Below are positions 1,701-56,894 of a DNA stretch of 64,000 nucleotides, one piece after another. The translations under genes and the position numbers were made by a program. Under the pieces are notes generated by a model. The model did no database searches. It was not told the DNA's origin and saw only the letters and a list, made by a program, of their open reading frames with translations. Positions within the stretch are counted from its first letter, which is position 1. Each line of letters begins with the position of its first letter. This stretch comes from Octopus vulgaris (Eukaryota), in NCBI GenBank assembly GCA_951406725.2, contig OX597827.1:59334001-59398000 (forward strand), in the 5' to 3' direction.

Positions 1701-4700
1701 TGTTGTATTACCGGTTTTAACAAATCTCATCATGACCCCCCCAGACAGAAGATAAACATAAATTTTTACAGATATTTGATATGATGGGATTCATTAAAAC
1801 CGGAAATATTTTCTTTATATGATAATTTTGATAAAATCATTTTTATTAAATTCCCTCTTAAATTGAAATGTCTTTGGCTTACTTCTGTGCTATTTCTGTG
1901 TCCATCATTAAAAAAGACTTGTAACTTCTGTGAAAATACATATTCCTGAACCTCAAAGTTTCTTTGTAAGTTCTACAAGTATTGGCTTTGAGAAATGTTT
2001 TGGATACCTTCACAGTTTAATGACATTAACAACACCATACAATGCAACAACAACAACAACATGACTAAGAATTGTAATAACAACAATTATAGAGTATATA
2101 ATGGTTAATAATATTTTGTCTTTAATAATAATAATAATAATAATAATAATGATAATAATAATAGCAGTAGTTGTAGTTACAATAATAATAATAGTAATAA
2201 TAATAATAATAATGATAATAATGATAATAATATTAATAATTATCAATCACAATAATCATATTAATTATAATAATGATAAATAATTTACAGATATTGTATT
2301 ATATGTGTGTGTGTGTGTGTGTGTGTGTGAAATGGATGACAGGAAAATCAGGCGCCCTGGAAGGGCAGCCAGTTGGTTGGTATTGCTCGTTTGCATGTAG
2401 CATTCCCATATGCATTAGAGATATGCCAGTTCCTAGCGGCAGCTAGGTGAATGGAACGGCAAATGCAGAATGAAGTATTTTGCATATAAACAAAACAACA
2501 ACAACAACAAAACCTATAGTAGTTTGAACTCATAGTATTTGAGCATGTAACCCAGCAATTTATCATCCATCATGCTGTATATATATATATATATACATAT
2601 ATGTGTGTGTGTGTGTATAAATGTATGCATGTAATATATATATATACATCATATATATATATATATATATATATATATATATATATATATATATATATAT
2701 ATATATTAATTTATAAAAGGTTAGAGATCTTTCCAAATCAACTTTTTATATATAAATGATAGAGGTGGAAATAGCACAGAAGTAGACTTTTCAATTTAAG
2801 AAGGAATTTAATAAAAATTATTAAAAAAAAAATTATCGTATGGAGAAAATATTACCGGTTTTAACAAATCTCATCATGAACCCTACACAGAAGATAAACT
2901 GTTTTTACTTAATATTTTTATAAATTTTTACTGATATTTGATATGATGAGATTCATTAAAACCAGTAATATTTTCTTTATATGATAATCTTAAAAAATCA
3001 TTTTTATAAAATACCCTCTTAAATTGAAATGTCTTTGACTTCGATGTTATTTCTATGTCCATCTTTTATATATATAATATTATATATATCATATACATAT
3101 AGTATATATATATATATTATATATCATATATATATATTATATTATAATATTATATATATTATATATTATAATATATAAGATATATATATATATATATATA
3201 TATATATATATATATATATATATATATATATATATTATATCTATGTAGTATATATATGTGTGTGTGTGTATATATATATATATATATATATATATATATA
3301 TATATATATATATATATATATATATATATATAAATATTATGAATATTATATACATGATGCTTGTATATATATACACACACACACACACACACACACACAC
3401 ACACACACATATATACACATATGTATATATACATATATATATGCATACATGCAGCTACTGCTAAAAGACATTTTCTCCAGTGACCATTGCCACCACAGAT
3501 TACTAAGATTAACTTGGAACACTCAGACACTAAGAAAAACTCAGACACAGCCCAGCAATTAAGGATTACTTTATATCATGTTAAATTAGTCGCTAGTTTT
3601 CTTTATCATATGCATATTTAGTTTTTAGGTATTGTAGTGATGTTCATTCTGTTTGATCATCTGGTTGGAAGTGATGATGGTCATGCATCTACCTTTATAG
3701 AGTATCAGAGGTTGTTGTGTTTTCACAAATGCTTGTTCTACACTTTAATTCTTATATTATATTGTATATATACATACATACATACACACATATATATATA
3801 TATATATATATATATATATATATATATATATATATATATATATATATGCATGTTTGTGTGCATGTATACACACTCTATGTCCATAAACGTACAAATCCAT
3901 AAATATATATATATGTATATATAAATATATATATATAAATATATATATATATATACACACATGTATGTATGTATGTATGTATCTACCTATCTATCTATCT
4001 TTCTCTCTCTCTCTATATATATATATATATATATATATGAATGCATGTCCTTATATAAGTTTGTTTGTATGTGTATATTAGTAGTAGCATTTTTTTTCAG
4101 GTTTGATTATGTACATAGTAATTATAGGATAAAAGTTTAAAAAGAGAACTCAATCACTTTGATAGAGAAAATGCTTCATTCATAGGTTTAGGGCTGGTTC
4201 CAGTATACACCATTCCAGTAAACATTGGTCATCTCTCTCTGTAAAATGTAACATCTGAATCCCTCAAAACAAATCACTGTGGAATGGTATTCTGTAAACC
4301 AACACAATATATATATATATATATATATATATATATATATATATATATATATATATGTATATATATGTGTGTGTGTGTATATATATATAGTATTTGCTTT
4401 TGTTTTTCTTATAGTGTGTATTCATGTTTATAATTTTCATTTGACATTATATATTGATTTTCTTGTGTGCCTGTGATGGAGCAGCCGTAGAGTTATCTTC
4501 CCTTGTATTATGAATTCTTATTTATTTATTTATTTCGTATAATTTATTATAATTTATATCGTCATATCATCCGAATGCATTTAGTTTTCATACAAATGCC
4601 ACACTTGCATTTAAAGGTTTATATGTGCATGCCAGTGCATGTGTTTGTGTGAGTGTGTGTGTATATATATGTGTGTGAGTGAACATGTATTTGTATGTGT

Positions 4701-6406
4701 GTGTGTGCATGTGCGCATGTACGTGTATATATATATATATATATACATATTTATCTCTGTATATATATATATATAGATATATATATATATATATATATAT
4801 ATATATATATATATATATACACACATACACACATACCCACTCACACATACGGTTACATATATAGAGTGTGAAAAGAGAGAAATATATCTATCTATATTAT
4901 TTTATATGTACATAAATGTATATATATATATATATATATAATCATGCATATTTATACATATTTATATATATATGAACATATATGCATGTGTGTGTATACG
5001 TGTGTGTATATATATATAATACATCTATCTATAATTATATATATATATACGTACATATATCTTTTTATATACATCTATATATATATATATATATATATAT
5101 ATATATATATATATATATATATATACATCTATATATCTATATATATATATACACCTATATATATATACATATACATATCTATATATATATACATATAAAC
5201 ATATATATATATATATATGCATATATATATACATATATATATGCATACATATAAGAATATACATACATATATATATATAAACACACATATATATATACAT
5301 ACATATGAATATATATATGCACACACATGCATGTATATATATGTATATATTTATATATACATACATAAAATTGTACATACATTTATATATGTATGGATGC
5401 ATGCATGTGCACACATGCTCTCTCTCACACACGCACATGCACACACACATATATATATATATATATATAGATACAGATAAACCTGCATATATTCTCAAAT
5501 ACATATATTTATATACAGAAAAAAAAGTTAACATACCCATACACACAACCACACCTGCATATATGCTAATATATGGTATATTTACATAAATCTATGAAAT
5601 ATTTATCTATTCATTTGCATATATAACATGTTTCAATATACATAAACACGTACACACATAGCTATATATATACATACATATATATATGTATATACATACA
5701 TACACAAAAGAAATTTTTTTCTTAATATATGTCAGATTATATATTGATAAATATTTTTTTTATATGACCATGTATGTATAATTATTAAGTAAGCATAAAG
5801 TCTTCGTCATGTGTTTGTACACGATAGTTTGTTTCTTTTTCTTTTTAATTGTGCTTGTATATGTATGCATGTGTGTATATATGAGAGTTTTACCAGTGCA
5901 TGTATATAAAACTGTTTATTAATTTAAATCAGTTATTGTATTTCAATTTTAGTTACATTTAAAAAAAAATCATTTGAAGATTTCATTTCTTTATATATAT
6001 ATATATATATATATATATATATATATATATATATATATATATATATATATATATATATATATATATATATATGTATATATATATATGTATATGTATATAT
6101 ATATATATATGTATATATATATGTATATATATATATATGTATATATATATATATATTTATATATATATATATACATATATATATCATATTCAGTGAATCT
6201 GATTTTAGTCTCATTGAATGAGTATACAATCTTTCTATGCAATTTTTTTTGAATTGTTTGTATTCTTTTTTGTCTGAATTCATTTATTATTGTACACTAA
6301 CTTTTTTTTTTTTTTACGTTTTTACTCATCTTGCATACATACATACATGCATACATACGTATACCCAGATGCATACAAGCATGCAAACATACACACCTAC
6401 AAGCAT

Positions 6407-6600
6407 ATCTATCTATCTATCTATCTATCTACCTAATATCTATCTATCTATCTATCTATCTATCTATCTATCTATCTATCTATCTATCTATCTATCTATC
6501 TATCTATCTATCCAGCTATCCATCTATCTATCTATCTATCTATCTATCTATCTATCTATCTATCTATCTATCTATCAATCTATCTATCTATCTATCTATC
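6407..6600. repeat. (CTAT)n tetranucleotide microsatellite
   Basis: Direct reading. Confidence 0.95.
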
Positions 6601-7728
6601 TGTTAATATACTTATTCTCACATTCATACACACACATTGTATGTATATATGTATCTATCTATATATAAATATATATATGTGCATAAATATATATGTGCAT
6701 GCATATATATAATATGCATTTAAATCTCAATATACACATATATACATATGCACAAATTATATATATATGTGTGTGTGTGTGTATATGTATGTATATGTGT
6801 ATGTGTAATGTATGTAGGACTTTTAGTGTCATAGAATTTAATTTCACTATTATATAAGCAAACTGGGCAATTTAGAAGCTCTGATAGTCTTCATTGTTCC
6901 ATTTGTACTGTTTCAAGATAGCTAGCTGCTGTTATATTAAGCTTGCAGTAAACCTTAAGCAAGTCTTTCGGCATCATTTTGCTCAATATCAAGTTCAACA
7001 CTTCACATAACAGGAACAATACTATTAATCATGAAATCAATAAGATTTTATACAGAATAATCTTGACTTTTCAAATCTGTTCCTTTTGGATCACTCAAAC
7101 GTTTGTTTTGTCATAGCTCAGAAATCCTTAAATCTCAATTGATTTTATTGAGCACTTTTAGATTGTTTTGTTTCATTTTTGTATAAATTAAAATGTGTTC
7201 ATTTGTGGAACATATGTATTTGAACCTCTGTGTATGAGAACATATATGTATATATATATATATTTATCTTCAAGTCAGTTTCTGCATTTTTATCTCTCTT
7301 CTTCTTCATGTTTCTGTTTAATTCTCATACATCCCCCACCCCCATCTCTCTCTTTCTCTTCCTCTCTCTCTCTCTCTCATCCCCTCATTTGTCCTTCATT
7401 CTACTTCTCTCCATTCATCTACAATTCTATCTATCTATCTATCTATCTATCTATCTATCCATTTATCTATCTATCTACATATCCAAAATTCATTTATTCC
7501 ATCGTTTTCTTGTCCTCTCTCTCTCTCTCTCACACATGTTCATTTTCTCTATTCACGTATATATATGTATATGCATAAGTATATATATATACATGCACAT
7601 GCAGTTGCATATATGTAAATCCACACATCTGTAGATGACTGTGTGTATATATGTGTATGCATGTGTGTAAGTCTATATGTAAACATATATAGCCCTTTCC
7701 AACCCCCTGCCCCAGGCAGTGACCTCTG

Positions 7729-56249: not shown

Positions 56250-56284
56250 GTTTCTGACGAAGAGCTCCGCTCGAAACGTTAAAC
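56250..56284 (+). ncRNA. Minimal hammerhead ribozyme in a solo PLE 3'-end fragment (about 56181-56375)
   Basis: Stem I GTTT/AAAC; CTGACGA-A; stem II GAGC-TCC-GCTC; GAAA-CGTT; downstream TTTCCTGAGCG shared with the 34.5-kb PLE end. Confidence 0.72.
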
Positions 56285-56561
56285 CCTCCTTCTTTCCTGA
56301 GCGTCCAATAATACTATACTTGTTCCACGTCCTCGCGTTGTGTTTTCTCTTTGTGTTTTCATGTTTGGATTAACTATATATATATATATATATATACTGG
56401 AGTAAACACGTAAATGTGAAACAAGGTGGAAAAAAAGAGTACTCAAATACCAGGGGTAGAGTAATATGCTTTATTTAAAAGCAGCAGAAATTCAACAAAA
56501 CCTGTTACTCGGAGTCTCCCGTTCCCGTTCGTCGGACAGTTTTGTTAAAATTTTAACAAAA

Positions 56562-56599
56562 CTGTCCGACGAACGGGAACGTGAAACTCCGAGTAACAG
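56562..56599 (+). ncRNA. HHR variant (core CCGACGA) inside a 140-bp palindrome (56481-56620)
   Basis: Stem I CTGT/ACAG; CCGACGA; stem II ACG-GGAA-CGT; GAAA; stem III CT-CCG-AG; triplet GUA. Confidence 0.72.
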
Positions 56600-56894
56600 G
56601 TTTTGTTGAATTTCTGCTGCGTTAATATATATATATATATATATATACAGTTCTATATATATAAAGGAGTATGTTTCTATACATATATACATGCACATAA
56701 TAGAATGTAAATTAAAATACCACCTCGCATTTTGAGTTTCAGGCTATCGCAGTCGTCAGGCATTTAAATGCTTGTGATTGCAATGGTGTAAAACTGGAGT
56801 TGTGATAAAGGAATTTAATTGGTGGCAAAAATGCAAAAAAAAAAAAAGCAAAGCAGGTAAACGAAAGAGGAAATGGTTGGTAAAAAGTACTCAC

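Follow-up and report, generated by a model that had tools for sequence, protein, structure and literature searches.

What do the palindromic sequences scattered through and behind an octopus gene record? The question is raised by a stretch of 64,000 nucleotides of Octopus vulgaris (OX597827.1), here called the window, which covers much of the gene slit and contains seven fold-backs, labelled E1 to E7. Each consists of two inverted arms, most lie in or beside (TA)n microsatellites, and several carry a hammerhead ribozyme motif. The fold-backs are very probably insertion scars of Penelope-like elements (PLEs). In the reading favored here, to which a probability of about 60% is given, they would be heavily 5'-truncated insertions of several PLE families, made by two-sided priming and head-to-head joining of the copies. 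They are a known kind of PLE insertion debris in a preferred microsatellite and not a separate system. Statements about published work refer to the available parts of the papers cited.

Inverted arms had been reported at seven places in an initial annotation of this DNA, and all seven were recovered by self-BLAST of the repeat-masked window and by pairwise alignment. The arms are 80% to 99% alike, and this unequal identity indicates that the fold-backs differ in age, with E4 young and E1 and E5 old (coordinates and alignments are collected in the table). In E5 the left arm was interrupted afterwards by another repeat (~43641-43856), which is accompanied by a 12-bp duplication. One-sided tails, described before as frequent, are clear in E3 (119 nt), E4 (121 nt), E6 (117 nt), and E7 (81 nt) and are not clear in the other three. 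Short palindromes or overlaps are found at the centers of E1, E3, E4, E6, and E7. In E7 no more than 4 nt (56550-56554) separate the center from the 5' edge of the hammerhead's extended stem I; E4 and E6 start elsewhere.

The seven had also been considered largely unrelated in sequence. This stands for most pairs, which score only z 3.2-3.7 against block shuffles, and fails for two cases: E1 has a second copy, and E3 and E6 form one family with a truncated copy at 62831 that is not a fold-back. The start points of the three family members differ, as do their centers. A short 3' end is seen in E3, in E6, and roughly at 62992, and a long 3' end in E3 and E6. The two copies within E6 are the most unequal. 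About 250 nt, including the hammerhead, are present only in the tail-less copy, with the tail-bearing copy lacking them (alignment score 19), and the tail-bearing copy has 117 nt that are missing from the tail-less one. The 3' region of this family (14255-14425 in E3 and 51222-51408 in E6) is predicted to form a multi-branched RNA fold running across the near 3' end and the tail (z -5.3 and -4.1), and 2 of its 41 pairs are changed on both sides, in compensatory fashion, between the only two full copies. Such a fold would likely be a signal for recognition by protein or for priming or the start of copying. A further ribozyme was considered for this region and rejected, since Rfam gave no match and full copies number only two.

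The hammerhead motifs were sought with a strict type-I descriptor, and 40 local dinucleotide shuffles of the window served as the null. The descriptor matched four times in the window (twice in E4, once in E6, and once in a PLE stub at 56183) and in none of the 40 shuffles. A wider descriptor added the right arm of E7, which has the core change U4C, for five matches against a shuffle mean of 0.37, and none of 100 shuffles reached five. Under three settings of this descriptor the window gave 5, 4, and 3 motifs, counts that again none of 100 shuffles reached. When one core mismatch and a longer stem I were allowed, four matches remained against 2 in 15 shuffles, the motif at 34518 being gained and the one at 56250 lost. 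The excess over shuffled sequence, which had been named as a check on the motifs, is thus observed. The exact 24-nt motif of E4 had no match in prokaryotic genomes or viral contigs. Rfam listed no hammerhead family in the E6 region (0 of 6 matches) or the E7 region (0 of 23). For the whole window 150 matches out of 417 were listed, again with no hammerhead family among them; the matches listed in these scans were only microRNA-like hairpins.

Five of the fold-backs had been credited with a hammerhead or its shape. The motifs of E4 and E6 are complete, and E7 has one core change, with U4C in both arms and GAAA also changed in the left arm. Those of E1 and E5 are decayed and visible only by eye, and no descriptor found them. 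In E5 the first core box is intact and stem I has 5 bp, stem II is broken, and the best halves lie on different arms; in E1 three stems are possible on the right side (~2932-2970), with 3-4 core mismatches. E2 keeps only the 3' half of a hammerhead and E3, which is truncated downstream of its family's motif, has none, so the earlier statement that these two lack a complete motif was right. All intact motifs point outward, as had been proposed, and that of E6 sits in the spacer instead of an arm.

Near the fold-backs lie PLE remnants whose coding sequence can still be recognized. The 344-residue frame at 32733-33761 matches 152 proteins with reverse transcriptase (RT) and GIY-YIG domains (profile E 3e-142), and its linker appears to be of Neptune/Nematis type. 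Between the open reading frame (ORF) and the hammerhead, the 3' untranslated region (UTR) of this element (33980-34350) includes 2.3 tandem copies of a 122-nt unit with (CA)n. In the hammerheads at 34518 and 56250, stem III is palindromic and A9 is followed by an extra base, both features of minimal PLE hammerheads (PMC4209133). Among seven metagenome relatives of the 32731 protein, one (L006) bears a hammerhead-like motif built in the same way (966-993, plus strand), about 215 nt past the endonuclease match. The two decayed remnants at 12250 and 49109 retain CxxC and CxH motifs and have lost the RT motifs by truncation; the Hydra clade is characterized by an endonuclease without CCHH and with CxxC and CxH, and by DKT and RWK motifs in RT. 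Part of the former (12268-12516) had no match in a word-based protein search and was matched in a full HMMER search, and no hammerhead was found behind the 12250-12607 remnant.

Two likenesses lead from the fold-backs themselves to PLEs. Twenty nucleotides of E7 (56580-56599) are identical to the 3' half of the hammerhead of Hydra-2_Ajap (PMC8557442 supplement), and stem III of E4 is, by eye, of the type listed for Hydra elements. The tie is one of motif and anatomy, because the fold-backs show neither a relation to the coding remnants nor a match to a PLE protein profile. Loss of the ORF is expected in truncated stubs, so the fold-backs are to be seen as derived ends and not as elements of a named clade. 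For E1, E2, and E5 a PLE origin is inferred. The earlier suggestion of insertion scars left by several PLE lineages at (TA)n is supported by minimal PLE-type hammerheads, the E7/Hydra identity, ORF-linked PLE ends in TA tracts, and the two TA-joined ends and variable centers of the E4 family described below.

The (TA)n context was part of that suggestion. Of the 14 fold-back ends, 11 are no more than 5 nt away from a run of at least four TA units, compared to 1.7% of 3000 random unmasked positions, a count that is not independent because the elements had been picked partly by their TA context. E2 has TA at one end only. Independent evidence comes from public contigs: at 27756, TA repeats take over from the E4 sequence in 34 contigs of three sequencing runs (19 from run X1, 14 from X14, and 1 from X12). 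Another contig of X12 exits into TA at 27871. The E4 family thus has two standard TA-joined 3' ends about 115 nt apart. A further TA-inserted family was seen at 55374-55522 (plus), 55645-55830 (minus), and 62597-62739 (plus), with a short end in two copies and a 57-nt tail in one; the first two lie tail to tail across (TA)61. A hammerhead can be drawn for the copy at 55826 if its core is read as swapped (G3-C8); stem II then has 5 bp, stem III is palindromic, and the copy breaks off within stem I. This reading is uncertain, as the other two copies have stem II 7 nt from the core, and no report of a natural G3-C8 hammerhead core was found in the literature search.

The contigs also show that E4 belongs to a larger family. 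At least half of the sequence words of E4 are present in 20 runs (7 studies, 2 organisms), and the numbers of contigs placed on 27480-27872 in four runs (3162, 600, 757, and 46) indicate a high-copy family, with depth not used as a measure of copy number. In all four of these runs, contigs of the left arm continue with other letters at 27550 (10, 2, 4, and 1 contigs), which means that E4 is a truncated copy of a longer family and that its two halves overlap by 3 nt. Other fold-back centers occur as well. One contig of X1 joins 27521 to 27574, symmetric about the center, and another has a loose end before 27673 that mirrors the sequence around the 6-nt palindrome 27673-27678 (104 further loose ends exist beyond those listed). 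Three runs that look like DNA gave 17 variant rows at 5% or above, and the core and stem I of E4 are free of them. One of these rows turns a G-C pair of stem II into G-U. Two others lie in loop 3, and with either of them stem III becomes perfectly palindromic, as would be expected of a dimer-forming minimal hammerhead.

How could such scars arise? In the favored course of events, the element's protein would cut a (TA)n tract, and reverse transcription would be primed from both cut strands at two nearby RNA start sites. The cDNA begun at the far site would become the tail-bearing arm and that begun at the near site the tail-less inverted arm. Each would stop early at a point of its own, their 3' ends would anneal at a few self-complementary bases, and the longer copy would supply the spacer. 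A hammerhead near the 3' end of the element would survive such truncation and point outward. The arms, tails, two TA-joined ends, hammerhead type, unequal truncation, and short palindromes or overlaps at five centers are observed here. In the tailed fold-backs, both arms can be read as first-strand cDNA that grew inward from a flank, with the far end as the origin of one arm and the near end as that of the other. The targeting of (TA)n comes from the literature, as does the cleavage and extension of both strands. In a lizard, a PLE protein was shown to cut both strands of its target and to extend both; it uses two adjacent internal RNA start sites whose interval equals the tail, and it does not require hammerhead cleavage (PMC11167929). 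Inverted copies are not discussed in the available text of that paper, and the two-sided priming and joining proposed for the octopus are inferred.

Several observations weigh against this account. None of the seven fold-backs matches a PLE protein profile, which agrees with the earlier finding of no intact ORF, and none is related to the three ORF-bearing remnants or tied to an ORF of its own. Of 12 motif queries, 11 had no match in the available consensus supplement of PMC8557442, where line breaks may hide matches. The upstream 125 nt of E6 resemble the end of a Hydra ORF by eye (frame 2) and gave no score with the Hydra C-terminal profile, and no link is claimed. E1, E2, and E5 have neither an intact core nor a clear one-sided tail, and E5 has TA at neither end. 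The E1 fold-back and the copy at 1706-1909 have one center, which means that in at least one case a whole fold-back was copied or a local duplication took place. Contigs can be followed past the E4 center for 26 letters, too few to show a coding region, and the two alternative E4 centers are seen in one contig each, at short palindromes where library chimeras also arise. The lizard in vitro data come from an element of the Poseidon clade and not from Hydra or Neptune. Lastly, the tails of 81-121 nt exceed the published 30-40 nt.

In a rival explanation with the same origin, a truncated PLE end might acquire its inverted arm when one cDNA snaps back on a short internal palindrome and copies itself, with the endonuclease trimming at the near site. 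The bases at the five centers and the arms of E4 (207 of 209 nt identical) suit this, and palindromes at inverted junctions have indeed been explained by self-priming (PMC3846280), which is a further point against two-sided priming. The explanation is nevertheless rather unlikely. In E6 each copy holds sequence absent from the other, the extra ~250 nt on one side and the 117 nt on the other, so one self-copied strand is insufficient and two-sided priming is preferred. Many contigs also show the near end of the E4 family attached straight to (TA)n, which is what a priming site should produce. More doubtful still is a passenger origin, raised as an alternative in the initial annotation, in which ORF-less, non-autonomous PLE derivatives would be transcribed and would reinsert as finished hairpins, like miniature inverted-repeat transposable elements (MITEs) or retrozymes. 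The missing ORF link in all seven, the high copy number of the E4 family, the common center of E1 and its second copy, and the well-folding E3/E6 3' region, with its compensatory pairs, would agree with passengers. Ready-made hairpins would not be expected to differ in start and center as E3, E6, and the 62831 copy do, nor to extend past the center and show other centers, as the E4 family does. Head-to-tail tandem units like those of retrozymes are lacking, and folding predictions leave the hammerhead buried within a perfect hairpin. A variant in which the master itself is short and non-autonomous, and its copies are truncated and inverted as they insert, could still apply.

Two remaining explanations do without PLE insertion. 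TA flanks suit DNA transposons that target TA, and the fold-backs might be ordinary MITEs of this kind with hammerhead-like motifs by chance. The state of E1, E2, and E5 allows for this, and the window does contain a symmetric element without a hammerhead (23180-24823, with 664-nt arms). One-sided tails, unequal arms, and variable centers are not MITE features, however, the descriptor matches exceed all shuffles, and E7 matches a Hydra-clade hammerhead. For E3, E4, E6, and E7 the idea is refuted, as they lack symmetric terminal inverted repeats of fixed length and fixed center; it stays only for E1, E2, and perhaps E5, and for the set as a whole it is very improbable. The palindromes could also be artefacts of assembly or library preparation. 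Confirmation in independent sequence had been asked for, and for E4 it was not obtained: no contig bridges the center of E4 among the 32 pieces listed (there are 4553 others), which counts for an artefact and against the favored account alike. Six of the seven fold-backs have arms that are 6%-20% diverged, which makes an artefact unlikely for all but E4. In addition, E5 received a later insertion in one arm, the E1 center occurs twice, and the tail-less end of E4 is a real family end in three runs. Artefact is the least probable of the explanations and only barely credible.

The anatomy of the fold-backs agrees in most respects with what is known of PLE insertions. Complex insertions of endonuclease-bearing (EN+) PLEs show a head-to-head inverted copy, a one-sided tail, a palindrome or overlap at the junction, a (TA)n context, and 5' truncation (PMC8557442 Fig. 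2, PMC3846280), as do the fold-backs here. Such insertions are described as strongly 5' truncated, with an adjoining inverted truncated copy, a one-sided tail of 30-40 bp, and a bias for (TA)n (PMC8557442); the fold-backs differ from them in being without any ORF and in the length of their tails. A preference for (TA)n is known in Hydra, Naiad, and Neptune PLEs. Hydra-clade PLEs are also alike in their type-I hammerhead, 50-200 nt from the 3' end, and its palindromic stem III. The clade is defined by its protein, which is absent from the fold-backs and represented in the window by two endonuclease remnants. Compared to Hydra-clade hammerheads, E7 has U4C and a shorter stem II, and E4 has a 60-nt stem-loop II. 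The minimal hammerheads of metazoan PLEs are type I, with a weak palindromic stem III, and mostly single, and dual ones occur 100-700 bp apart on opposite strands (PMC4209133). The opposite-strand pair of E4 resembles these; octopus does not occur in the available text of that paper. Retrozymes share the absence of an ORF, the type-I hammerhead, and kinship to the pseudo-long terminal repeats of PLEs. Non-LTR retrozymes are head-to-tail tandem units (bioRxiv 10.64898/2026.07.22.740005, PMC7229834), whereas the fold-backs are single and head-to-head, never have both hammerheads on one strand, and are accompanied by no head-to-tail hammerhead array in the window.

It had been left open whether anything of the kind was described in cephalopods, and the answer is that parts were. 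Hydra-1_Obim of Octopus bimaculoides combines a (TA)n preference with a canonical hammerhead, and two Octopus Naiads prefer (TA)n (PMC8557442 supplement); the inverted copy with a tail is described there only for PLEs in general. No fold-back matched the hammerhead of Hydra-1_Obim, as available in that supplement, by eye or by motif search. Penelope is among the expanded repeats of coleoids (PMC8967140), and 31 recently active Penelope-like families are reported in O. vulgaris, in an available text from which the word hammerhead is absent (PMC13282606). The junction anatomy, with its unequal arms, two standard ends, and self-complementary center bases, makes the origin of inverted copies and tails in PLEs testable by counts of junctions in octopus, whose genome is rich in copies. 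Neither this point nor the one on editing families made below was found stated in the literature searched, which left most subscription journals outside its scope. The longer tails, the E6 junction, and the hint of editing are the parts worth following.

Whether the ribozymes still work is another matter. In the E4 hammerhead alone, stem II has a predicted pairing probability of 0.96 and stem I of 0.28-0.35, which falls to 0.001 in the forward copy alone; stem I of the isolated E6 hammerhead is at 0.07-0.08. In the whole E4 hairpin (about -376 kcal/mol) all ten hammerhead pairs are at 0, and in that of E6 they are at 0.002 or less. These probabilities are predictions, and co-transcriptional and protein-assisted folding lie outside the model. 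The whole hairpins are predicted to bury the hammerhead stems, and the ribozymes of the fold-backs are probably inactive. The initial annotation had spoken of a ribozyme-hairpin system; that description is not supported, as most of the motifs are decayed and the predicted pairing of those in the E4 and E6 hairpins is close to nil.

The arms in slit pre-mRNA are predicted to pair into long duplexes and would then be substrates of ADAR. A possible trace of this was seen in run X12, which is RNA by guess only. Of its 40 variant rows listed (2 more exist), 23 are specific to the run, that is, below 1% in the other three. Twenty of these 23 are A>G or T>C changes, compared to 5 of the 17 DNA rows (Fisher p 0.0003), and 20 of 21 transitions go in that direction (p 0.002 given the A+T content of the arms). 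ADAR prefers certain 5' neighbors, and the changes fit this preference: on the edited strand, 18 of the 20 follow a T or an A, and none follows a G (p 0.011 and 0.034). All the candidate edits are in the arms and none in the tail, which very few contigs cover. One of them, at 27707, changes core position A15.1 from A to G in 8 contigs. The pattern suggests that RNA copies of the E4 family are heavily A-to-I edited by ADAR. It comes from one run of a different individual, the sites are not independent, and the contigs derive from the whole family; pairing between separate E4-family copies or transcripts would give the same pattern.

Repeats, including palindromic ones, are known to be edited, and hyper-editing is very high in octopus (PMC5625713, PMC9068888). 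In the former study the hyper-editing signal was strongest in octopus, which also had many potential long duplexes, and a frog Harbinger and a lizard Penelope are repeats that fold on themselves into long hyper-edited duplexes, a likeness to the E4 family. The octopus sites are not assigned to repeat families in its available text; the evidence here is one probable RNA run with family-level contigs. If the editing signal holds, it would put a name to one family of repeats that forms the long duplexes to which hyper-editing in octopus is attributed. A bolder and decidedly speculative extension is that two-sided PLE priming mass-produces perfect intronic hairpins, that these are a main source of the long double-stranded RNA behind the standing of octopus as the strongest A-to-I hyper-editor known, and that the fold-back disarms its own ribozyme twice, by burial in the duplex and by editing that reaches A15.1.

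Table. Positions in the window of the fold-backs, their relatives, PLE remnants, hammerhead motifs, and the host gene
Feature	Position	Strand	Description
E1	2706-3070 (feature 2759-3070)	+	Old fold-back; arms 130/162 identical (80%)
Second E1 copy	1706-1909	+	Fold-back center same as E1; left arm shortened
E2	10486-11149 (feature 10491-11149)	.	Arms 192/226 identical (85%); internal 95-nt tandem duplication
E3	14047-14425	+	Arms 115/123 identical; inverted copy 14047-14164, forward copy from ~14165, tail 14307-14425
E4	27342-27872	+	Young; 209-nt arms 207/209 identical (99%); center 27546-27547; tail 27752-27872
E4 hammerhead, inverted copy	27372-27462	-	Complete type-I minimal; strict descriptor
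E4 hammerhead, forward copy	27631-27721	+	Complete type-I minimal; strict descriptor
E5	43600-44092	.	Old; arms 41/46 + 64/78 identical
E6	50807-51410	+	Arms 86/94 identical; tail-less inverted copy 50807-~51165; short forward copy from ~51170, with tail
E6 hammerhead, inverted copy	50953-51021	-	Complete type-I minimal; strict descriptor; in part without mirror in forward copy
E7	56397-56623	-	73-nt arms, 74/79 identical; no loop at center 56550/56551; tail 56397-56477 on left
E7 hammerhead, inverted copy (right arm)	56554-56612	+	Hydra-type with U4C; wider descriptor
E3/E6-family truncated copy	62831-62992	+	Not a fold-back; ends near short 3' end
5'-truncated PLE	32731-34653	+	Not a fold-back; RT end, CX4CXXC linker, GIY-YIG; ORF part 32733-33761; TA tracts at both ends
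Hammerhead at 3' end of 32731 element	34518-34555	+	One core change; descriptor with one mismatch
3' stub related to 32731 element	56183-56374	+	Adjoins E7 across (TA)11
Hammerhead in 3' stub	56250-56284	+	Complete; strict descriptor
Decayed Hydra-type PLE end	48556-49390	-	Endonuclease C-terminus 49109-49356, then 3' UTR; ends in (TA)n
Hammerhead of 48556-49390 end	48660-48730	-	One core change, palindromic stem III; by eye
Decayed Hydra-type endonuclease C-terminus	12250-12607	-	Near (TA)n
Host gene slit	63780 to 7729	-	Exons seen

The setting of these elements is a window with 34% G+C in which (TA)n is dense. The laminin-G exon of the host gene is 100% identical to a protein that one source names slit-like of Octopus vulgaris. 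Since the slit exons span the range given in the table, E2 to E7 are intronic; E1 is found beyond the stop codon of slit, at a distance of about 4.7 kb. The symmetric element at 23180-24823, overlooked in the first pass over the sequence, has arms that are 99% alike and a spacer of 316 nt. It is bounded by TGT...ACA in (TA)n, each arm contains a tandem pair of 50 nt, and a tail is lacking. It is likely a young non-autonomous DNA transposon and would give the longest predicted duplex of slit pre-mRNA in the window. Self-BLAST also brought out several abundant families that resemble short interspersed elements (SINEs), in both orientations (e.g., 492-713, 19879-20433, 43648-43854, and 51564-51964), and some copies lie less than 3 kb from an inverted copy, giving additional possible duplexes in the pre-mRNA.

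Other repeats in the window are of different kinds. The stretches at 8200-8790 and 9300-9540 (plus) and at 35450-35650 (minus) look, by eye, like the C-terminal zinc knuckle and restriction-like endonuclease of R4/Dong long interspersed elements, and the two that were tested had no Pfam match. At 35600-35660 (minus) both hammerhead core boxes are present, with a stem II that is not clear. Small palindromes at 45739-45780 and 54921-54975, with arms of about 20 and 25 nt, lie outside (TA)n and have no hammerhead match. Finally, a 210-nt repeat is present in two copies that are 81% alike (18219-18433 and 59168-59382); it begins directly after a TA run, has short inverted ends, and is presumably a MITE of the Tc1/mariner type, which it resembles.

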